Positions 11,214 to 20,837 of a DNA stretch of 64,000 bases are shown piece after piece. The first letter of the stretch is position 1. The number at the start of each line of letters is the position of its first letter. The stretch comes from a virus, in the IMG/VR virus record IMGVR_UViG_3300046780_000484, positions 17,628-81,627 of that record. One strand, written 5' to 3'. Position numbers and translations under genes: made by a program. The notes beneath the pieces were generated by a model. That model saw nothing but the letters and a program-made list of their open reading frames with translations. It searched no databases and was not told the origin of the DNA.

Positions 11214-14200
11214 TCAGGCGCCCTTGCCGGATGCCTGCAGGCCCGTCTTGTTATTGCGCCTGGCCTGTCGGAGCAGGGCGGCCTGGACCTGCTCGGTGAT
11301 CTTCTTGATGTCCGCCGCGGACAGGTTCAGGCCCCCGGACCCGCCCCCGGACACGTTGATCGTCACGTGGTTAGTCGTGGCCCCCGCGGACCGCAGGTTC
11401 GGCGCGGTCATCCCGCCGTACTGGGCCATGGCCGCCTGCGCGCCGAGCGCGTTGGACGCCTTCCCCAGCTGCGCCCACAGCGAGTTGACCTGCCCCACCC
11501 CGCTGCCGGAGGTGCCGCCCCCGGTGAGGATCGACTGGGCCAGGGCGTCTCCCTGGACGGGCCCGGCGGCGATCAGCTGCGCGATGAGGCTCTTGTTCAG
11601 GTGCTGCTTCCGCAGGGTGCCGATGTCCCCGGTGAAGCTCTTGACCGAGCCCAGGTAGGACTGCATCTGGTCGGCGACGGACCCCTGGGCCGGGTCCATC
11701 CCGCTCAGGTTCAGGCCCTGCTGGGCCGCCGAAGACACCGACCTGGCGTAGGCGAGCTCCTGGGTGATCTTGCCGACCAGGGCCTGCGCGATCTTCCCCG
11801 CCCCGGCCTGCTTCAGCGCCGAGGTGATCCCGTCGATGAGCGTCCACGCGAGGTGGCCCAGGTTCCCGGACATCCTCGTCGGGTCGGGGAACCCGATCAT
11901 GTGCGGGACGATGCCGCCCGCGGCGAAATGCGTGGAGTGGCTTTGCGGGGCGCCGAACCCGGGGACCCGGTGGGCGGCCAGGATCGGGGCGATGAGCGAC
12001 ACCAGGTTCCGGGGGACGACGACCTCGCCCGGCTCGAGCATGGCGGGGATGATGTCGCCGGAGCCGCTTCCGGGGACCAGGCCGCCGGTCTGCATGCCCG
12101 GGGCCCGGACCCCGACGGGGATGCCCCGGGTCACTCCCGCCATGCCGCCGATGGTGATCATCCGGGTGGTGATCGTGACTTCCTTGCTGTGCAGCGCGGC
12201 GATCTCCGCGTTCAGCGCGGCCACCGCAGCCGCGCCCTGGACGTGTGCCGCCGCCTGGACGTTCTTGCTTTTCAGGGCGGCGATCTGGTTTTCCAGAGTC
12301 TTAAGCTGCCCCGCGCCCTGCACGTTGACCTTGGCGCTGACCTGCTTGCCCTTGAGCGCACCTAGCTGGGACTGCACTTGCGCGGTGTTCAGCTGGGCGT
12401 TGATCTTGGCGACCAGGCCGGACGGAACGTGGAGGTTCTTCAGGATGGCATCGACTGCCACGGTCATCTGGCCGGGTTTCACCCCGCCCATGGCCAGGCT
12501 GGACGTCAGGCCCTGCAGCCCGGCCGCGTTCACGCCGCCGCCCCTGGCGAGCGGGTGCGCGGCGAGGGCAAGGGCCTGCTGGGCCATCTGCGCAGTCAGC
12601 CCGGACTGAAGGGCACTCGGGCCGCCCATTCCCCCGGTGATCAGGTCTGCCGCGATAGCGGGGATGTTCGCGACGGCCTTAGTGCCCTGGGTGAGAATGG
12701 CCTGCGCCTGTGCCGGAGTACCAGCAGACCCCGTGATCGCGCGGACGAGGTTCTTGTAACTCATCCCCACGCTGATCCCCGGGATGTTCGCCTGCATGGC
12801 CTGCTGCTCGAGCATCGCCTGGGCCATGGGGGAATGCGCTGTCAGCGGCAGCATCTGCTGCAGGTCGAACGCGCTCAGCCGGGTGCCCTGCTGCCCGGTG
12901 ATCGCCCCGAGCGTCAGGTAGGTCCGCATCTGGTCCAGGTTCGCCTGCTGCGCCGCGACCATCCCCTGCGGCCCGGCGAATGTCGTCCATGCCGCAGCGC
13001 CCTGCGGGGTGAAGATGTTGGATAGCGCCTTCGCCATCGCCGGGTAGGCAGGGCCGGCAGGCATCCGGAGACCAGCCCGCGTGTGCGTCACCGGAGTGCC
13101 GCCCAGCATCCCGAACAGCGCCGCCTGGCCCGCCGGGCCGCCGGTCATGATCTGGGTCATCGCGTCCAGGCCCTGGTTGACCTGCGCCAGCGACTTCATC
13201 TGCGTGGTGGACATGATGTAGTCCGCCGCCCCGGCCATGAGCAGCCCGGATGCCGTGCCCGGCTGACCGCCGATGGTCGCGGTGCGGTACGTCTGGGCGA
13301 ACTGCCTGAGCTGCTGCTTCGCCGTCGCGTCGAGCTGGCCGCCCTTGATGTCCTTCGGCGAGATCATCGCCATGCTCATTGCCTCGAAGGCCTGAGTCAG
13401 GGTCGTGCCCTTGATCCCGATACCTTGCAGGGCCTTGATGGCTGACGGCCCGGCCGTGACCAGATCGCCTAGCTGCTGGCCGAATGACCCGAGCGCGTTC
13501 TGGTAAACCTGCGCTGCCGTCGGCCCCATGCCCGCTCCCGGGCCGAACCGGGCATATGTGGAAGACGCCTGCATCGCAGGGAAATAATTCGCGACATATC
13601 CCGCATATCCGGCAGTAGGTACCCCCGCTGCACCCTGGGCCGCCTGGTACATGGCTTTCGTGATCGGGTGCAATGCCCCGGCGCCGAACGACTGGTCGAT
13701 CCCCGCCTGGAGGCCGGCCATCTGCCGCATCGGCCCGGTGGGCATCGTCGAGGCAAGCTGGGTCATCGCGAACGCCGACAGTGCCGCAGCCAGCCCTATC
13801 GGCCCGGCCCCGGCCCCCAGGACCCCGGCCAGCCCGGCACCTTCTATTCCCGCGCCGGCGTCGGCGACCGTGCCGAGCCCCAGCCTCTCCGCCAGCCCGG
13901 CCAGCCCCCCGAACTTCGCGCCGCCCAGCCAGCCGGGAAGCTTCCCGCCGCCCAGGACCGGCCCGCCCCACCGCCAGCCCGCCTCGGCCGCCAGTCCCGC
14001 CCCGAGGAGCGGCCCCGGGATGTGCCCGGTAGCGAAGGCCGCCGCTCCGGTGATCCCCTTCAGCCCGCCGATCAGCCCGGGGCCGATCCCGGGAAGGTTC
14101 GGCGCGAGATTGAGGAGGGTGTCCCCGATGTTCGCGCCGATGTCCCCGAACGTCCGCAGGAACCCGGTACCGCCCGCCATGGCGCCGGTGACCTGCTGCA

Positions 14201-15323
14201 TGCGGTTGTGCAGGACCATGGCGGCGATGCCGCGGTCGACCATCGCGATCGTCTGCACGCCCATCCCGGTGAACGCTCCGGAACCCTGGCCTACCAGGTC
14301 ACGCAGGCCGCCGCCGATCCCGAAGACGCCACCCTGGGCTAGGTTCTGGGCGTTCTGGAGGTTACGGCTGAGTCCCAGCATGGTGCCGAACGTCTGGTTG
14401 CCGTACGCGCCGCCGAGGGCTTCCTGCGCGTTGTACATGGCGTTGCCGCGCAGGTAGAGATTCTGGCCTGCCTGGAGCCCGACAGCGCCTGCGGCCCCGG
14501 CCGCTACCGCTGCGGGGATGACCGTGGACAGGGTTTCCATGGTGAGCATGGTGATCATGTGGGCAGCCTGGAGGGTGGGCAGCGCCCCGCCGAAGATCTT
14601 GCTGGCGAGTCCGCCGGCGGCAGCGCCGGCAAGAGCGCCGCCCCCGCCACCCCCGCCGCCGCCGCCTCCTGCGGCTGCTGCGGCGAGCGCTGCGGCCCCC
14701 CATCCGCCTCCGCCGCCGCCTCCTGGCATACCGCCGCGAAGGCTTCCGCCATACAAATCCGCGAACGGGGTGAGATTTTCCGTGAGGTTATATCCGCTGC
14801 GACTTCCGCGCCCCACAGTCCCAGCAGCATCCCGGGTTGCCCTAACGAAGCGCGTCGTAGCCTCGGCAGCAGCATCATGCGCGTCTGCGTTGTCCCGCAG
14901 GGTCTGCGTCTGCGCCCTCATCCCGTCAGCGGAGTCAGCGACGTTCCGGCTGATGACCCCCAGGTGCGTTTCCATCCGCCCCATGGAGTCGGTCGCCATG
15001 TCCATGTACGTGGAGATGTCCTTGAGGTGCTGGACCATCTCCCCGTTGCCGCCGCCGACGTGGACGGTCTTGTCGCCGAGGCCGTCAAGGGCGGCCCTGA
15101 GCGCGGCAACCTTTCCCATCGCGGCGGAGGTGTCGACGTCGATCTTGATGTGCTTGTCCGGGAGGGCGGCCATCGCGGTCCCGAGCCCGGCGATCTCGCG
15201 CTTGACCTTGGCGATGTCGGCGACTAGCCCCTCGTTCGCCTTGATCATCTTGGCGACGCCGGCTATGTAGCCTGAGGCGTCTGCGACGAAGGCCTGCTCG
15301 ACTGATGGCAATCCGCCCGGCAC
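11214..15323 (-). CDS. tape measure protein
   Basis: 1369 aa Ala/Gly/Gln-rich; MQTGGLVPGSGSGDIIPAMLEPGEVVV motif typical of TMP C-terminal regions. Confidence 0.9.
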   Translation of the reverse strand: MPGGLPSVEQAFVADASGYIAGVAKMIKANEGLVADIAKVKREIAGLGTAMAALPDKHIKIDVDTSAAMGKVAALRAALDGLGDKTVHVGGGNGEMVQHLKDISTYMDMATDSMGRMETHLGVISRNVADSADGMRAQTQTLRDNADAHDAAAEATTRFVRATRDAAGTVGRGSRSGYNLTENLTPFADLYGGSLRGGMPGGGGGGGWGAAALAAAAAGGGGGGGGGGGALAGAAAGGLASKIFGGALPTLQAAHMITMLTMETLSTVIPAAVAAGAAGAVGLQAGQNLYLRGNAMYNAQEALGGAYGNQTFGTMLGLSRNLQNAQNLAQGGVFGIGGGLRDLVGQGSGAFTGMGVQTIAMVDRGIAAMVLHNRMQQVTGAMAGGTGFLRTFGDIGANIGDTLLNLAPNLPGIGPGLIGGLKGITGAAAFATGHIPGPLLGAGLAAEAGWRWGGPVLGGGKLPGWLGGAKFGGLAGLAERLGLGTVADAGAGIEGAGLAGVLGAGAGPIGLAAALSAFAMTQLASTMPTGPMRQMAGLQAGIDQSFGAGALHPITKAMYQAAQGAAGVPTAGYAGYVANYFPAMQASSTYARFGPGAGMGPTAAQVYQNALGSFGQQLGDLVTAGPSAIKALQGIGIKGTTLTQAFEAMSMAMISPKDIKGGQLDATAKQQLRQFAQTYRTATIGGQPGTASGLLMAGAADYIMSTTQMKSLAQVNQGLDAMTQIMTGGPAGQAALFGMLGGTPVTHTRAGLRMPAGPAYPAMAKALSNIFTPQGAAAWTTFAGPQGMVAAQQANLDQMRTYLTLGAITGQQGTRLSAFDLQQMLPLTAHSPMAQAMLEQQAMQANIPGISVGMSYKNLVRAITGSAGTPAQAQAILTQGTKAVANIPAIAADLITGGMGGPSALQSGLTAQMAQQALALAAHPLARGGGVNAAGLQGLTSSLAMGGVKPGQMTVAVDAILKNLHVPSGLVAKINAQLNTAQVQSQLGALKGKQVSAKVNVQGAGQLKTLENQIAALKSKNVQAAAHVQGAAAVAALNAEIAALHSKEVTITTRMITIGGMAGVTRGIPVGVRAPGMQTGGLVPGSGSGDIIPAMLEPGEVVVPRNLVSLIAPILAAHRVPGFGAPQSHSTHFAAGGIVPHMIGFPDPTRMSGNLGHLAWTLIDGITSALKQAGAGKIAQALVGKITQELAYARSVSSAAQQGLNLSGMDPAQGSVADQMQSYLGSVKSFTGDIGTLRKQHLNKSLIAQLIAAGPVQGDALAQSILTGGGTSGSGVGQVNSLWAQLGKASNALGAQAAMAQYGGMTAPNLRSAGATTNHVTINVSGGGSGGLNLSAADIKKITEQVQAALLRQARRNNKTGLQASGKGA

Positions 15324-15340
15324 AGGTCACCCCCTCCGCA

Positions 15341-15826
15341 TCACGGGTCGTACGGGCGGAACGCCTCGATCGCGATCCGCTGCAGTTCCCCGTCATCGAT
15401 CGCGTCCTCGGTGGTCGGCTCGAGGAACGGGTGCTTCTCCATGAGGACCGACCGGTGCCGCCAGATCCCCCCGGAGTCCTTCCAGCCCATGTGCCTGCCG
15501 GACGTGGGCCGCAGGAGGCAGGAGCCGAACTCGAAGACGTGCGCCCGCCTGTCCGTGGACCCCGCCGACGACGACGACCGCAGCCCTTCCGTCGCCGGGG
15601 TCGAGTACATGCTGTCCGCCAGCGCCCCGGATCCGTACGAGGGGGGCTCGCCCGGCCGGGCCTTGTAGTAGGTGCCGGGCGGGTTGATCCGCCGGGTCAG
15701 GGTCTCGTTCGCCGTCCGGTCCGCGATGTACCGGGCCATCGCCCCGGCGGCTGCGGGAGCGCCCAGCCTAGCCTTCGCCAGGACGGCTTCCAGGTAGGCG
15801 ACGTTCTGCTCGGGAGTGATCGCCAC
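15341..15826 (-). CDS. HK97 gp10-like tail completion protein
   Basis: PGEPPSYGSGALADSM, AHVFEFG, KHPFLEPT motifs. Confidence 0.7.
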   Translation of the reverse strand: MAITPEQNVAYLEAVLAKARLGAPAAAGAMARYIADRTANETLTRRINPPGTYYKARPGEPPSYGSGALADSMYSTPATEGLRSSSSAGSTDRRAHVFEFGSCLLRPTSGRHMGWKDSGGIWRHRSVLMEKHPFLEPTTEDAIDDGELQRIAIEAFRPYDP

Positions 15827-15839
15827 GGAGCACCCCCCG

Positions 15840-16090
15840 GAGCGTCCTCAGATCGCCGCCGGCCGCCTGGAGGGGCATCACCCGCGCGCTGAGGCACGGC
15901 CGGCTCCAGCCAAGCCCTACACGGCGGTAGCGGCCCTTCCAGTCGCCGCCGGGCGCGCCGAAACCGAACCGTTCTGTCGGCTGACCCTCGCACCACCACC
16001 ACACCGGCCGGCCGAGCGCCATCAGCTCAGCCGCCTCAGCCCACGTACCCCGCGCCACCCAGCCGCTCAGATGTGATCGAGAAACACGCC
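15840..16090 (-). pseudogene. orphan 3' half paralogous to the 18321-18770 gene
   Basis: GVFLD-[5 nt insert]-LSGWVARGTWAE...GRPVWWWCEGQPTERFGF...DWKGRYRRVGLG aligns with the C-half of 18321-18770; begins exactly after the IS right end. Confidence 0.8.
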
Positions 16091-16123
16091 TTGACATCCT
16101 CCTTGCGTAATACAAGGATTCCC
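16091..16123 (-). mobile_element. IS200/IS605-type right end (3' end of omegaRNA scaffold)
   Basis: Minus strand GGGAAT-CCTTGT-attac-GCAAGG-AGGATG-TCAA directly after tnpB stop. Confidence 0.8.
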
Positions 16124-16131
16124 GGCGGCGC

Positions 16132-17415
16132 TCATGCGGCACCTGCCAGAGGTTCACGCAACCGCCTCCCGGCAAGCCGGGGACTCGGCGCTGTGCGCCT
16201 GCGCGTGCTGTTAAGGCCGGCTGCCCGCCGGGCCTTCCGCTCAATATTCAGAGCGGCATTCTTGTCCGCGTGATCGGTGTGGCCGCATGCGGTGCAGGCG
16301 AACTCCCGCCCGCAGCCGGGTCTACTTTTGGGATCCACTGTCCCGCATGCCGAGCACGTTTGAGACGTGAACGGCGCGGGAACCACCCGCAGTTCGCTCC
16401 CGAACAGGGGAGCCTTGTACTCCAACTGGCGGCGCCGTTCGTAAGGGATATTGTCCAGGATCGCCCGGTTGAGAGCCGCCTTCTGGCGGATGTTCTTACC
16501 GGGAGCGTCGGCAGTACCCTTCGCGCTTGCCGTCATCCTCATCACCCGCAAGTCCTCGATGCCGACGTAGCCGTGGTTTTTGGCGAGGTCGGTCGTGAGC
16601 TTGTGGGTGAAGTCGAGCCTGCGCCGCGCTTGCCGACCGCGCAGATCAGCGATAGCGGCGTACGTCTTGCGGAGACGACTGGAGTACCGGCCGCCGTTGT
16701 GCTTCTTTGCATAGGCGAGCTGCCGCCGCGCCCGGCGCTCCAATCCAAGCAGCCGTTTCTGCTCACCCGGCGTGAGAGTCGGAGGCATCAGCCGGGGCGC
16801 ATCCTCGTCGGAGACGTAGGCTGCGCAGGTAGTGCCGAAGTCCACCCCGCAACCCGGCTTCTCGTTTGCCGGAGCGGCCTTGCGGCCCGTTGCGACACCG
16901 ACGACGAGATGCCATATGCCCGCACCGTTCACCTTGACCGTTGCGTTCCGCAGTTCACCGCCGAGCGATCGGGACCAGCGGAACCGCACCCATCCGATCT
17001 TCGGGAGCCGGATTTCGCTCCAGTGTCGGTTCAGCCGCCGTATCTTCAGATCCTGGCCGGTGAACGGGACGGCAAGGATCTTGCTGCGCTTCTTGCGCTC
17101 GGGGGCACCCGCCAGATGTCGCGGGTTCCACCAGTTGTCGTAGGCGCGGTCAAGATGCCTGAGGATCTGGTGTGCGCTCTGGGCTGGCATGTCGGTCAGC
17201 CAGGGCAGGTCGGCGCGGGCCTGGGTTAGGTAGGCACTCTGATCGAAGGCGCGCAAGGTGCGCCGTCGCTGTTCCCAGACGAACCGGCGCTGCTCCAGCG
17301 CGAGATTCCAGACAGTGCGGCACATGTGACCCCAGGCAGTCAAGCGTTCCGCTTGATCTGGTTCTGGGTACAGGCGATACTTCCGCGCAGAGTCTGCCTT
17401 GCGAGTCTCGCTCAC
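16132..17415 (-). CDS. tnpB: TnpB RNA-guided endonuclease
   Basis: N-terminal KYRLYP HTH; RuvC residues GVDFG, IEDL, ADKNAALNI all present; CSACG/CTACG zinc finger. Confidence 0.95.
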   Translation of the reverse strand: MSETRKADSARKYRLYPEPDQAERLTAWGHMCRTVWNLALEQRRFVWEQRRRTLRAFDQSAYLTQARADLPWLTDMPAQSAHQILRHLDRAYDNWWNPRHLAGAPERKKRSKILAVPFTGQDLKIRRLNRHWSEIRLPKIGWVRFRWSRSLGGELRNATVKVNGAGIWHLVVGVATGRKAAPANEKPGCGVDFGTTCAAYVSDEDAPRLMPPTLTPGEQKRLLGLERRARRQLAYAKKHNGGRYSSRLRKTYAAIADLRGRQARRRLDFTHKLTTDLAKNHGYVGIEDLRVMRMTASAKGTADAPGKNIRQKAALNRAILDNIPYERRRQLEYKAPLFGSELRVVPAPFTSQTCSACGTVDPKSRPGCGREFACTACGHTDHADKNAALNIERKARRAAGLNSTRRRTAPSPRLAGRRLREPLAGAA

Positions 17416-18149
17416 GACGTCTCATCGAGCCGGTCGAATAGGCTTCTTTGCGCGCTCATGACTCCGACCAGCAGGTAGGAGTGGGCCCGGTGTGCTCGCT
17501 GCTGGCGTTTGGTTGGCTGCGGCATCCGAGAGGTGTTGACCAAGACGAACATGTCGGCCAGGTCCACGCCCGCCGCCGCCATGATCCGGATGACGTCAAG
17601 ATGCACGAGGTGCAGCCGGTGGTTGTAGGTCATGTCCTGGCACTTGACCATCAGCCGCCCGGTGCCGGGAGCCAAGACGCGAGCGCACTCGCGAACACCG
17701 TCCCGGTACAGGTCCAGTACGTCGTTCATAGTCTGACGCCCGGTGGTGTTCAGCGCGTAACTGCGGCCAACCCCGAAGTTGCGCTCAGGCTTGCCGTGTA
17801 CCGGCTGGTAGGGCGGGTCGAACACCGCTACGTCAACGCTGCCATCGGCGTATGGCAGGTTCCGGCAGTCGGCCACGAGGTCAGCCTTCGCGGTCGGCCG
17901 GATATCGCTGCACGTCACCTCAAGCTTGGGGGCGGATCTCCAGAACACGCCCTCGCCGCAAGTCACATCGACCACCCGGTCATCCGAGGTGATCCACAGT
18001 TGGGCGACTTGCTCAATCAGCCGGTCATTGGTGCCGACAACCGCCGACGTGACCACATCGGGCGTTACTCCGGGGCAGATGACTGGCGCTCCATAGGCAA
18101 CCGGATCTGTCGGAGTATATCGCCCGCGTAGCCCGCTACCAGGTGTCAT
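17412..18149 (-). CDS. SAM-dependent amino-methyltransferase (probable DNA N6A/N4C MTase)
   Basis: DVTCGEGVFW motif I and FDPPY catalytic motif; stop overlaps tnpB start; leaderless TACACT-6nt-ATG. Confidence 0.8.
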   Translation of the reverse strand: MTPGSGLRGRYTPTDPVAYGAPVICPGVTPDVVTSAVVGTNDRLIEQVAQLWITSDDRVVDVTCGEGVFWRSAPKLEVTCSDIRPTAKADLVADCRNLPYADGSVDVAVFDPPYQPVHGKPERNFGVGRSYALNTTGRQTMNDVLDLYRDGVRECARVLAPGTGRLMVKCQDMTYNHRLHLVHLDVIRIMAAAGVDLADMFVLVNTSRMPQPTKRQQRAHRAHSYLLVGVMSAQRSLFDRLDETS

Positions 18150-18171
18150 GTACGCAGTGTACCATATTGGG

Positions 18172-18366
18172 ATGGAGCCGAAGCGAATGGGCACACGCGA
18201 GTTGCGGGACAATCTCAGCGTCCGTATCGACGCCGCCTACGTCCGCCATGAACCGACGATCGTCACCAGGAACGGGCGACCAAGAGCCGTACTCATCTCG
18301 TACGAGGAATGGCTCATGTCTCAAGCAAGGGGACGGGACCAGGAGGCCTGCACCGGCCCGCCATAG
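18172..18366 (+). CDS. Phd/YefM-family antitoxin (orphan)
   Basis: MGTRELRDNLS...EPTIVTRNGRPRAVLISYEEW. Confidence 0.85.
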   Translation: MEPKRMGTRELRDNLSVRIDAAYVRHEPTIVTRNGRPRAVLISYEEWLMSQARGRDQEACTGPP

Positions 18367-18770
18367 CCGAGACCGACACGACGATAGCGATATCCCCAGT
18401 CCCCGCGAATGCCGTCCGGACTGAATCCGAACCTGTCCGTCGGATCGCCGTCGCAGAACCACCAGACGGGCTTGTTGTCCGACAGTAGGCCGCAAACCTC
18501 CAAGTAGGTACCCCTAGCTACCCATCGGTTCACGTCTAGGAACACGCCGTAGGCTGCCTGCCGCCTCACCTCGGGCCACAGGGCCTGCCACTCCTTCGTG
18601 TTCCGGTAGAGATCCTCCGCGACCAGCACCCTCACCGGGCAGCCAGTCAGCGTGTGGAACGGGAACTCGCGGGCCGCCTCGAGGACGGGAGTGCCATACA
18701 AGGCCATCGGGGACATCAAATAAAGAACAGGCGGCGACGAGGAAATGACAGGCCGGAAATGCGGGAGCAT
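18321..18770 (-). CDS. hypothetical protein, possible nucleoside 2-deoxyribosyltransferase-like fold
   Basis: LYLMSPM N-terminal strand and VARGTYLEV...NKPVWW resemble NDT-like motifs. Confidence 0.5.
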   Translation of the reverse strand: MLPHFRPVISSSPPVLYLMSPMALYGTPVLEAAREFPFHTLTGCPVRVLVAEDLYRNTKEWQALWPEVRRQAAYGVFLDVNRWVARGTYLEVCGLLSDNKPVWWFCDGDPTDRFGFSPDGIRGDWGYRYRRVGLGYGGPVQASWSRPLA

Positions 18771-18776
18771 GTATAA

Positions 18777-19938
18777 TTAAAGGCGTAAGGAGCGTCGCGC
18801 TGCCATGCGCGTCAGGAGTTCGTCAATGGCCGGTCCCATGTATTTCTCGGCGACATTGCCGACCTCGTACTGGCTCACCGACTCGCGGAGTTTTACCTGG
18901 TCAACGTCCTGCCGCTGCTCGTACGACTGCTCCAGCGCCGCAACCATTCCTGAAATGGAAGGGCGAATCCACCAGCCCCTGTGGACGCCATTGAAAAACG
19001 GCTCGCCGTCCACCTGGATGCCGTCCGGGTTCAGTTCCTCCATGGACGAGCAGCGGGTCGTGATGACGGGCGTCCCGCACGCTTTTGCTTCAACGATGGG
19101 CAGCCCGAATCCTTCCGCGTACGTCGCCGCCAGCAGCACGTCGCACATCCCGTACCAGTCAGCGAGATCAGCCGGCTGGATCAGCCCCGCGTTGTACCGG
19201 TACTGGTCCACTACCCGAACCCGGTCCGTGATCCCCAGCGACTCCGCCAGGAACTCCAGGTCCTGCCCCCCGTCGCAGTGCACCGCCGTGTGCAGCCACA
19301 GCAGCGAATCCGGCCGCGACCGCAGGAACTTCGCGAACGCGAGCAGCATCTCCGCCGGCGCCTTCCTGATCGCGTCGTTGTTAGCCGCGTTCACGCCGAT
19401 CACGAACGTCTCCGGGCCGAGCCCGGCCGCCTCCCGCAGCGCCGCCCGGTCCTCCGGGATGACCCACGTGTCGAACGGGATGCCGTGCGGCACGTAGAGG
19501 GCGTTGCCGAACCCGGCATCCCGGAACCGGTCCAGCCCGAACCGGGACATCGCTATCAGCGAGGCCCCGCCTGCTTCCACCACGTTCCTGTCCGCCACGG
19601 ACATCGGACGGCAGTCCGCGGGCAGCCAGTGCGCCACCGGGAGTTCCTTGAGCACGCCCGGGTCCATCACCCACACGTCGCCCAGGGTGATCACCAGATC
19701 GGGCTGGATGTGGCGGGAGTGCTGCTGGAGGGACGGGCTGCAGTACGACCCGCCGAAGCCGGGAAGGACCGGGATGCCCTCCCACTGGGTGACGGATCCC
19801 GACAGGCCCCAGTACGTAGCGATGAACACCTCGTGGCCCAATCCGGCAAGGCGCTTTATCCAGATTGCGGTCTGTTGTCCGTAACCGCTTTAAACTGGCG
19901 GACCACGGAGCGCAGCTGCTCCACAAGATCCTCGCCAT
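18777..19938 (-). CDS. GT4-family glycosyltransferase; frame broken by 7 nt insert at 19887-19893
   Basis: MARILWSSCAPWSAS + GYGQQTAIW in different frames; EGFGLPIVEAKACGTPVI GT-B motif. Confidence 0.85.
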
Positions 19939-20045
19939 TAAGCACCACCTCCCCTCGTCAGGGAGACGCGATGCCACGAAATACGGGTCACTCGCCGCCC
20001 CTCTCTAGTGCCACAGAAAATGGCGCATTGTGTTATTATGGATAA

Positions 20046-20837
20046 GTGAAAGAAATCCCCTTGCGTGGTCGCCACGGGCAAGGTCGCGTCATGCTTGTGG
20101 ATGACGAAGACTACGAGCTAATGTCCCGCATTAAATGGCACGCCATCGTCGATAACAACGGCTGCCTGAGCGTTCAGGCACGGATCTCTGCCCACAACTT
20201 CCTTACCGGCTACGCGCTGACCGATCACGCCAACGGGAACCCTCTGGACAACACCCGAGGGAACCTGCGCGATGCCACATCCAGGCAGAACAGCTGGAAC
20301 AGGCGACTCAGGAGCGACTCCCGAACTGGCTATAAAGGCGTCAACTCAAGGCGGGGCGGGCGAGGGTACGTCGCACGGATCCTCGTAGACGGGAAGCGTA
20401 AAACGCTGGGATGGTTTCACGATCCGATCAACGCCGCGAAGGCGTACGACGCGGCAGCCCGTGAAGCCTTCGGGGAGTTCGCCCGGCTTAATTTCCCGGA
20501 TAGCGAAGACCTTCCGGACGCCCGGGAGTCTCGGGTTTCTCGTACGCAGCGCCGCGTCCGGGAGACGATTTCCGGAATGGAGGATCAGCCCAGCGGAAAG
20601 CAGTCCAAGTACTCGGAGGCCAGCTGGAACCGGCCCTACCGCGGGGGAACGCGGGCAGGCTTCAAGGGGGTCAACTGGTCAGGCAGGAGATGGCAGGCTC
20701 GCATCATGAAAGACGGGAAGCGGCACTTCCTCGGCACCTACGACACCGCCGAGGAGGCGGCCCGAGCGTATGACGCCGCCGCTTGCACCCTGTTCGGGGG
20801 TCATGCGCGGTTGAACTTCCCAGGGGAGGCGGCGTGA
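20046..20837 (+). CDS. HNH-AP2-AP2 homing endonuclease, counter-oriented
   Basis: DHANGNPLDNTRGNLR (HNH); two AP2 domains YKGV...LGWF...AAKAYDAAA...FGEFARLNF and FKGV...LGTYDTAEEAARAYD. Confidence 0.92.
   Translation: MKEIPLRGRHGQGRVMLVDDEDYELMSRIKWHAIVDNNGCLSVQARISAHNFLTGYALTDHANGNPLDNTRGNLRDATSRQNSWNRRLRSDSRTGYKGVNSRRGGRGYVARILVDGKRKTLGWFHDPINAAKAYDAAAREAFGEFARLNFPDSEDLPDARESRVSRTQRRVRETISGMEDQPSGKQSKYSEASWNRPYRGGTRAGFKGVNWSGRRWQARIMKDGKRHFLGTYDTAEEAARAYDAAACTLFGGHARLNFPGEAA

Follow-up and report, generated by a model that had tools for sequence, protein, structure and literature searches.

A TnpB cassette carrying a replacement half for the phage gene that it interrupts: a candidate for RNA-guided homing

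A split gene and its replacement half

The window analyzed here is a 64,000-nt stretch (positions 17,628 to 81,627) of the IMG/VR virus record IMGVR_UViG_3300046780_000484, an uncultivated metagenomic contig of a soil phage (81.6 kb, 68% G+C, rated 67% complete). Within it, a conserved phage gene that we call X (18321-18770, minus strand) contains an interior CTAC motif after which the reading frame runs on into a divergent 3′ half, X′, and the original 3′ half lies as an orphan on the far side of an IS605-family TnpB gene and its omegaRNA region. Because X′ completes the reading frame, the phage should still make the whole X protein. We consider it plausible, at a probability of roughly 0.45, that the most likely mode of this arrangement is homing, i.e., that the TnpB unit acts as a gene drive of the non-restorative kind that would also harm competing phages. 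The original prediction, made from the letters of the sequence alone, had proposed such a drive in the form of a transposase-free TnpB cassette carrying a synonymously recoded copy of its own target.

The resident 5′ half of X comprises 74 codons ending in ...RRQAAY (18549-18770, minus strand). It is 92% identical in amino acids to homologue P0014 and 91% to P0003, and its nucleotide sequence is 88.7% identical to that of L025, a related locus in which X is uninterrupted (hereafter, a naive locus). The G+C content at third codon positions (GC3) of this 5′ half is 0.85, like that of the phage's other genes. The frame continues directly into X′ (18321-18548, minus strand), which is 228 nt long including its stop codon at 18323-18321. 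The orphaned original 3′ half (approximately 15768 to 16090, minus strand) begins directly after the terminal TCAA of the TnpB unit with GGCGTGTTTCTCGATCAC, and distally it overlaps the beginning of the gene that follows. It is a genuine gene half, as first proposed: tblastn aligns it to residues 79-147 of the intact X with an E value of 1.5e-18 and 51% identity.

There are 78 homologues of X among metagenomic proteins, and 67 of them could be compared half by half with the window, the other 11 lacking the motifs needed for splitting. The core of the orphan reaches up to 88% amino acid identity, and it does so with the same clade of homologues as the 5′ half (P0002-P0008); its nucleotide identity to the naive loci L025, L026, and L036 is 82 to 84.5%, the highest value being that to L036. 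Because both the 5′ half and the orphan are closest to this one clade, we conclude that they were once a single gene. The core of X′, on the other hand, is at most 69% identical in amino acids to any of the 67 homologues and roughly equidistant from all of them, and its nucleotide identity to everything compared is 64 to 71%. When residues 80-149 were searched against 5.8 billion proteins, one relative was found, P0079, at 72%; this protein is a natural X of full length, and its 5′ half does not resemble that of the window. A cluster-representative library gave 14 matches to X′, none closer than 65%, and a search of the viral contig collection for P0079-like loci returned only ordinary alleles. 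With a best match of only 69-72%, X′ comes from a different X lineage. The resulting chimeric X, in which the 5′ half and the orphan are B-type and X′ is D-like, fits transfer of a whole block and a one-off patch equally well. The synonymous recoding that was originally proposed holds for the first 15 nt of X′, a block encoding the peptide GVFLD, and does not hold for the rest, where X′ is a divergent allele that over the conserved core is 61.5% identical to the orphan in amino acids and ~66% in nucleotides.

X′ retains every invariant column of the family alignment, so it is probably functional. The AT-rich codons that had been noticed in this half are confirmed by its base composition: with a GC3 of 0.731 and a G+C content of 0.622, X′ is the lowest of 35 alleles, the 34 naive alleles having GC3 values of 0.761-0.955 and a minimum G+C content of 0.662. 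Its GC3 (0.73) is close to those of TnpB (0.76) and of a Phd-like open reading frame (ORF) in the same cassette (0.75), as compared with 0.84-0.94 for phage genes.

The orphan has changed little. Over 35 codons, its differences from the closest naive alleles at first, second, and third codon positions number 0/2/8 for L026, 2/1/7 for L036, and 0/3/10 for L027, with 2-4 amino acid changes each, whereas X′ differs from the same alleles at about 11/9/20 positions with 13-15 amino acid changes. Since the orphan's differences are mainly at third positions, it appears to have accumulated little since its translation stopped. Relative to 12 naive alleles it has a gain of 2 nt at nt 22-24 past the boundary at which it joins the TnpB unit (16069-16067; CAC ATC TGA GCGGC as against CAC CTC G GCGGC). 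A 5-nt insert reported earlier at nt 16-20 of the guide proved to be a length difference relative to X′ only. This gain is the orphan's single frame-breaking change, and it lies just past the zone of 15-21 bp in which ISDra2 TnpB cuts, as given in the cited part of PMC8612924. Either a recent insertion or repeated homing would give the orphan's present state, and the data fit both; under repeated homing, the right arm would be renewed from each recipient, and the tract nearest the right end would be co-converted. As a separate observation, the 2-nt gain puts the orphan's X frame in line with an open frame extending back through the right end of the TnpB unit (15768-16244, minus strand), and that frame is in phase with an ATG inside the terminus GGAGGATGTCAA, from which a C-terminal piece of X might be made; long open frames are common at such G+C content.

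TnpB, its right end, and its cargo

The TnpB gene (16132-17415, minus strand) encodes an intact protein of 427 amino acids, as had been predicted, with matches to Pfam PF07282, PF12323, and PF01385 that cover the helix-turn-helix, OrfB_IS605 (RuvC), and zinc ribbon domains. It aligns over its full length with the ISDra2 TnpB structures 8h1j and 8bf8 (E ~2.5e-32), and its motifs GVDFG, GIEDL, and HADKNAALNI align with the RuvC motifs of the top matches. For ISDra2 TnpB, we take the catalytic D-E-D residues to be D191, E278, and D361. The D191A variant of ISDra2 TnpB appears in the cited part of PMC8612924. A TldR-type nuclease-dead TnpB repressor was considered and rejected, as the RuvC motifs are present and the protein is full length. 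Among bacterial relatives, the TnpBs of L007 and L008 are 74% identical to that of the window, and a peptide-pattern search of the viral contig collection found no TnpB relatives.

The omegaRNA scaffold and right end occupy 16091-16235 (minus strand). Past the TnpB stop codon, the sequence comprises GGAATCC, a stem-loop (16101-16117), and the terminus GGAGGATGTCAA, which ends at 16091, 41 bases beyond the stop. The terminus and the preceding stem-loop are common to nine relatives (L007, L010-L014, L016, L019, and L020) whose TnpBs span 54-74% identity, and the sequences of all nine diverge directly past TCAA. Because these relatives share the terminus and diverge right after it, the boundary is real, and the IS605-type right end originally placed at this position is upheld. 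A consensus fold of the last 200 nt of the nine family elements has 32 base pairs, 15 of them with compensatory changes, including the terminal hairpin, where the window has CCTTG/CAAGG and other elements have CCCCG/CGGGG. This fold fits a conserved omegaRNA scaffold at the 3′ end of TnpB. A search of 15500-19000 on both strands against Rfam gave zero matches at E<=1, neither to an omegaRNA family nor to a group I intron; with no group I intron or other Rfam family present, splicing fails to explain how the insertion is tolerated, and an IStron was rejected as a candidate on the same grounds. A promoter scan returned 0 sites, and none of the sequencing runs listed as containing the sequence is an RNA run.

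Because the right end is joined directly to the original 3′ half of X, the guide of the omegaRNA is predicted to be the X sequence GGCGTGTTTCTCGATC, i.e., the first 16 nt of the orphan (16075-16090, minus strand). In ISDra2, the guide is derived from the flank of the right end and is ~16 nt long (PMC8612924, in the part cited). As described in the original prediction, the first 15 nt of this flank (16090-16076), GGCGTGTTTCTCGAT, encode GVFLD, and so does the start of X′ (18548-18534), GGCGTGTTCCTAGAC, which is preceded by GCAGCCTAC; the two differ at nt 9, 12, and 15. X′ then has mismatches to the guide again from nt 16 on.

The CTAC at 18549-18552 (minus strand), which forms the junction GCAGCCTAC-GGCGTG directly 5′ of the target-like site in X, is a putative target-adjacent motif (TAM). 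Its assignment comes from complete IS605-type relatives (L011, L014, and L019/L020), each of which has a divergent gene for a Y1 transposase and, at its left end, a hairpin almost identical to the one at its right end. A scan for these left ends gave one further independent insertion, L064. CTAC stands directly 5′ of the left end in 4/4 independent insertions (L011/L066, L014/L063, L019-L020/L065-L067, and L064), but the base ahead of it differs among the four (G, A, G, and C), as does everything upstream. Thus, CTAC should be the target or TAM motif of this TnpB family. Since CTAC precedes GGCGTG in X, the joint between right end and orphan bears the signature of a TAM-dependent event, either transposition or homing, unlike a random joint. 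In naive alleles the target directly adjoins the TAM position, as would be the case if the element inserts just past a fixed TAM and its guide is identical to what follows the TAM in the empty site.

Between CTAC and the right end lie 2,458 nt (18548-16091) that contain X′, a Phd-like ORF, a phage-type DNA methyltransferase gene, and TnpB with its omegaRNA region. The small Phd/YefM-like ORF (18172-18366, plus strand; Pfam PF02604, E 6.8e-10; possible starts at 18148, 18172, and 18187) is divergent from the methyltransferase-TnpB operon, and its tail overlaps the X′ stop codon on the opposite strand. The methyltransferase (17412-18149, minus strand) matches phrog_24333 (E 8e-40) and, weakly, the Pfam family N6_N4_Mtase, and its stop overlaps the GTG start of TnpB by 4 nt (GTGA). 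No relatives of this methyltransferase were found in the viral contig collection. In L008, a locus of an Actinomycetes metagenome-assembled genome, a Phd-like ORF that is 68% identical in amino acids stands directly and divergently upstream of TnpB with no methyltransferase between them, and the homology of the window to L008 begins at ~18323, a few bases from the X′ stop codon. Because L008 holds the same pair, the Phd-like ORF and TnpB appear to be a pre-existing unit of bacterial origin, and because L008 has only this pair, the methyltransferase and X′ appear to be additions specific to this phage.

The Phd/YefM-like ORF is truncated and stands without a toxin partner, and it is conserved in this state beside TnpB in both the window (18148-18366, plus strand) and L008 (L008:3780-3992, minus strand), as is the intergenic stretch containing CCATCCCAATATGGTACACTGCGTACATGAC. 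The Phd-like ORF may be a regulator of the TnpB operon; for IS605 elements, a preprint (10.64898/2026.09.24.754181), in the part cited, describes Arc in a regulatory role. In X2, a soil metagenome run of a different study, two 151-nt contigs without flanks match the methyltransferase-TnpB junction and the methyltransferase (17291-17441 and 17556-17706) with 0 differences, so the cassette or the phage would be present in a second sample.

No left-end hairpin resembling the window's right-end hairpin or the left ends of the relatives was found in 15000-20500, either by fuzzy searches or with a repeat finder. Two candidate left ends were rejected. At the start of X′ (CCTAG...CTAGG), the first 77 nt fold as single-stranded DNA no better than shuffled sequences (z +0.81), with a loop unlike that of the right-end hairpin. 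The second candidate, a TAM-flanked left end at the boundary of L008 homology beside the X′ stop codon, has flanks (TTGA and GTGC) that bear no similarity to CTAC. The transposase TnpA (PF01797, Y1 transposase) was not found anywhere in the 81.6-kb record, a 67% complete sequence that does not cover the host genome; the same search was positive in 6/14 control genomes. The earlier statement that there is no TnpA and no evident left end is borne out, and with neither in the record this copy should be incapable of excision or peel-and-paste transposition. The protein, right end, omegaRNA, and TAM, as judged from the sequence, place the element among the TnpB elements of the IS605 family, and it lacks the left end and the TnpA of that family.

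Homing and its alternatives

In the mechanism that we favor, an IS605-family TnpB/omegaRNA unit would have come to sit in X exactly 3′ of CTAC, would have lost its left end, and would carry the Phd-like ORF and the methyltransferase as cargo. TnpB-omegaRNA complexes cut DNA that has a TAM and a match to a guide of ~16 nt transcribed from the right-end flank (PMC8612924, in the part cited). If the unit is expressed, cleavage would be expected during co-infection with a naive close relative because TnpB and the scaffold are intact, the guide equals the pre-insertion allele, and there is homology on both sides. The complex would cut those X alleles of close relatives that bear CTAC and a matching sequence, after which recombination through two homology arms, the 5′ half of X on the left and the orphan on the right, would repair the break and thereby copy the whole block of X′, Phd-like ORF, methyltransferase, and TnpB into the naive genome. 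After cleavage, either the competitor would be lost or the block would be copied. Because X′ restores X, the block should cost its recipient nothing, and because X′ has seed mismatches, the phage's own copy should escape cutting. ISDra2 TnpB tolerates distal mismatches but does not cut when two fall within guide positions 1-12 (PMC10097598, in the part cited); by this rule, the X′ site should be immune, having mismatches at 9, 12, 15, and from 16 on. TnpB-dependent, TnpA-independent spread of an insertion sequence (IS) through plasmid populations has been demonstrated experimentally in a preprint by Mears et al. (PMC11870625, in the part cited), and TnpA-independent homing in phages is listed as theoretical in a table of a 2026 review (PMC13565253).

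The alleles that such a drive might invade were sought among 41 related loci, 3 viral and 38 metagenomic. Two of these (L060 and L061) end before the X site and one (L062) matches outside X, leaving 38 readable X sites on 37 contigs (L051 and L005 being one contig). There is a presence/absence polymorphism at this one site, the window being invaded and 38/38 related sites uninterrupted. CTAC is present at the X site of 7/38 naive alleles, and their mismatches to the 16-nt guide number 2 to 5, all at third positions. The codons TTC and GAC of X′ are common among the naive alleles and the codons TTT and GAT of the orphan and guide are rarer, whereas the CTA of X′ occurs in 0/38. By the ISDra2 rule, most of the sampled naive alleles should be immune to cutting as well. 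In the viral contig collection, the naive-allele pattern was found only in the contig of L004.

Several results weigh against homing. None of the 38 related X sites is invaded and all of them read through GVFLD, so that the window is the only invaded copy. CTAC together with zero mismatches at guide positions 1-12 occurs in 0/38 alleles, and CTAC with one such mismatch in 2/38 (L036 and L039); with no allele combining the TAM and a clean match, a drive would be limited to very close relatives outside the sample. As TTC and GAC are common allelic variants, the site differences of X′ are no sign of design. A pattern search of the viral contig collection for the right end joined to GVFLD found none, and the contigs of the probable source sample (run X1) do not contain the naive junction, although contigs drop rare variants. 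A copy of the right-end flank upstream of TnpB was found in 0/7 usable bacterial relatives, a count that leaves out L016 and L013 (the latter being too short), and in 0/4 TnpB loci of cultured phages (Saccharomonospora PIS 136, Thermobifida P1312, Komagataeibacter phiKX1, and Ralstonia Cimandef); one apparent flank-copy match in a cultured phage, L073, was rejected as a 27-nt end repeat. Finally, the TAM is taken from relatives whose TnpBs are only 54-60% identical, and the mismatch rules are taken from ISDra2 TnpB, whose structure matches the window TnpB at E 2.5e-32. The search for uninvaded alleles called for in the original prediction did yield them, 38 in number, but none with CTAC and a clean match at positions 1-12. 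The RNA-guided homing drive itself is supported by the TAM coincidence, by the single lineage of 5′ half and orphan, by the foreign X′, and by the mismatches at positions 9 and 12, and it lacks both a second invaded allele and a clean target among the 38.

A serious rival, and one that we regard as possible, is that the structure is a frozen accident. A TnpA-mediated IS605-type insertion at CTAC would have split X, and later recombination, illegitimate or homologous, with a co-infecting phage carrying a divergent X would have patched the 3′ half and deleted the left end; the unit would now be stranded, doing nothing for the phage beyond residual self-maintenance, and its resemblance to a drive would be incidental. 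An accident would account for a structure that is a singleton with no clean target among the sampled alleles, and bacterial and cultured-phage relatives do not have such an architecture. The existence of P0079, a natural full-length relative at 72%, means that X′ can be the end of an ordinary allele, and recombination should be frequent in this hot spot, where insertions and endonuclease genes accumulate. The junction of X′ with the unit also falls at an arbitrary point just past a conserved RPL motif, where it creates a stop codon. On the other hand, TnpB and its RNA have not decayed, and the cassette-like GC3 of X′, the lowest of 35 alleles, suggests that X′ has been linked to the cassette for longer than a recent patch from a sister phage would allow. 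In addition, even a stranded unit would, by the known activity of TnpB, still cut naive relatives if it is intact and its guide equals the naive allele; with an intact TnpB, an omegaRNA fold, and such a guide, an accidental origin is compatible with a working drive. What separates homing from accident is the history of the block and whether it has moved as a unit. The single copy, the chimeric X, and the cassette-like codon usage of X′ lead us to lean slightly toward homing.

Homing can also be taken further. In a stronger form, which we offer tentatively and regard as less likely than not, the block of X′, Phd-like ORF, methyltransferase, and TnpB would be an autonomous RNA-guided phage gene drive that has neither transposase nor left end and moves between phage lineages by cleavage and recombination. 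It would carry its own cleavage-immune, function-restoring half of a target gene that looks essential, and this half would evolve with the cassette, and the orphan would be renewed from each victim. In this form, the codon usage of X′ would follow from its evolving with the cassette rather than with any phage.

The TnpB unit could instead be a weapon against competitors that does not home, which we find improbable. TnpB would destroy phages that carry the GVFLD-coding sequence, X′ with its seed mismatches would protect the phage itself, and the orphan would be kept as a guide and for its overlap with the next gene. The guide does lie in the most conserved block of X, where 25 sequences agree on V, F, L, and D without exception, and homing endonuclease genes can favor their own phage by killing competitors too divergent for conversion, according to the cited part of PMC13565253. 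However, the range of victims would be narrow, since owing to third-position variation 0/38 alleles match the seed with the right TAM, and ahead of the next gene the orphan keeps ~240 dispensable nt that are still similar to naive alleles, as would be expected of a homology arm. Killing and homing are in any case compatible with each other. A mis-join of the cassette and a duplicated half from two phage strains would be conceivable in an uncultivated metagenomic contig, given that related strains co-occur in soils, but it is very improbable, as the stretch 15300-19300 is matched without a single difference, and at an even depth of 13.8, by a 26-kb Logan contig from run X1 (possibly the source sample), and the junctions are biologically exact, with the right-end terminus meeting the target and the TAM meeting an in-frame X′.

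Neighborhood of X, known systems, and meaning

On the minus strand, the order of genes is a capsid-region gene, a glycosyltransferase gene (18777-19841), X, the cassette, a gene for a protein of 161 amino acids (15341-15826), and the tape-measure gene (11214-15323). The 161-amino acid gene follows X directly in the relatives and would form part of the right homology arm. The order glycosyltransferase, X, 161-amino acid gene, and tape measure is preserved in all related loci long enough to reveal it. X has no Pfam or PHROG family match and, by tblastn, no homologue in 50,697 GenBank phage records, and megablast of 15300-19900 against the same records gave zero matches; the phage group of the window is uncultivated. 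An AlphaFold model of X (18321-18770, minus strand; m045d06b0f928) has a mean pLDDT of 67.6 with disorder past residue 117, and its Foldseek matches in the PDB are weak (best E 5e-3, TM ~0.40-0.45), lying among folds like those of nucleoside 2′-deoxyribosyltransferase, MilB, and DNPH1, and name no function. Together with the neighboring glycosyltransferase, these weak matches of the model hint at a part in nucleotide or glycan chemistry more than at a structural one. Four proteins of 406-1141 amino acids (P0083, P0088, P0089, and P0090) match residues ~28-65 of X′ (PVWWF...GF...RRVG) in 6-8 separate stretches, so the 3′ half of X may include a unit that is tandemly repeated in other proteins.

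Just upstream of the glycosyltransferase, on the opposite strand, lies a free-standing gene resembling an AP2 and HNH endonuclease (20046-20837, plus strand; Pfam AP2 E 2.7e-10, HNH_3 E 0.0019). The gap between the glycosyltransferase and X varies in length from ~40 nt to 1.8 kb among the relatives and for that reason appears to be an insertion hot spot. When the largest ORFs of these gaps were searched against Pfam, 2/25 matched, both to AP2 (in L006, 4152-4769, minus strand, and in L049, 169-813, minus strand), and the remainder had no match. A further related phage contig (L037:1-458, minus strand) carries a different TnpB, 32% identical, of which the N-terminal 93 amino acids are present before the contig ends. 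It sits between the glycosyltransferase and X, is oriented away from X, and is preceded by a 60-amino acid ORF without a Pfam match. Given this different TnpB, TnpB elements have entered this phage group at least twice.

A known role of TnpB is to retain its transposon at the site by cutting the empty copy. The unit in the window resembles ISDra2-type elements of the IS200/IS605 group in its TnpB with RuvC and zinc-finger domains, in an omegaRNA that covers the 3′ end of tnpB and the right end, in a guide from the flank, and in a TAM-adjacent target. For ISDra2-type elements, the RNA-guided cleavage is that of the vacated donor site (restorative homing), and the unit in the window differs from them in having no TnpA in the record and no left-end hairpin, and in its cargo of methyltransferase, Phd-like ORF, and gene fragment. 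A closer counterpart in its proposed behavior is the plasmid gene drive based on TnpB (PMC11870625), classed as transposon non-restorative homing in PMC13565253, which according to the cited parts of both is likewise proposed to spread independently of TnpA, through cutting of IS-free homologous molecules by TnpB. That drive, however, is a complete IS and was demonstrated experimentally, whereas the present case, known from its sequence, lies in a phage structural-gene region, has lost its left end, and carries a replacement gene half.

The free-standing homing endonuclease genes of T-even phages (Seg and Mob) provide a second comparison. They are known for intronless homing with co-conversion and for marker exclusion. 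Here, as there, a nuclease gene stands between conserved phage sequences, self and non-self would be told apart by substitutions in a conserved gene, and flanking DNA would be co-converted (review PMC13565253, in the part cited); genes of the AP2-HNH type also occur in the neighborhood of the window's cassette. Recognition in the window would be by an RNA guide and TAM rather than by a protein, and the cassette lies inside a gene, one half of which it substitutes, rather than between genes. IStrons, which combine a group I intron with TnpB, likewise place a TnpB element within a gene whose function is preserved, but there is no intron in the window, where a spare half would preserve function in the DNA itself, with no splicing of RNA involved.

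Integrative elements, for instance the phages and islands found in tRNA genes, supply a replacement 3′ end and leave a displaced 3′ remnant at the far junction. The window shares with them that incoming DNA replaces the 3′ end, that the interrupted gene stays whole, and that a remnant lies at the far junction; it differs in having no integrase, no identical core repeat, and a far junction that is an IS605 right end. An integrase-type element with the 3′ end of its target in the phage attachment site (attP) was accordingly rejected, there being no integrase among the ORFs of 15300-19900 and the two copies sharing 12/15 nt before they diverge. Among the papers covered by a full-text search, there was no report of a TnpB cassette that carries a replacement half of its own target gene.

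The locus would be a natural candidate for TnpA-independent homing in phages. Its twist is that a cassette inside a conserved gene would avoid the cost of being there by bringing a spare half that bears mismatches to the guide, which would achieve in the DNA what IStrons and homing introns achieve by splicing. If this is true, RNA-guided nucleases can assume the ecological role of protein homing endonucleases in phages, and homing of this kind would explain some of the orphan gene halves that lie beside TnpB right ends.

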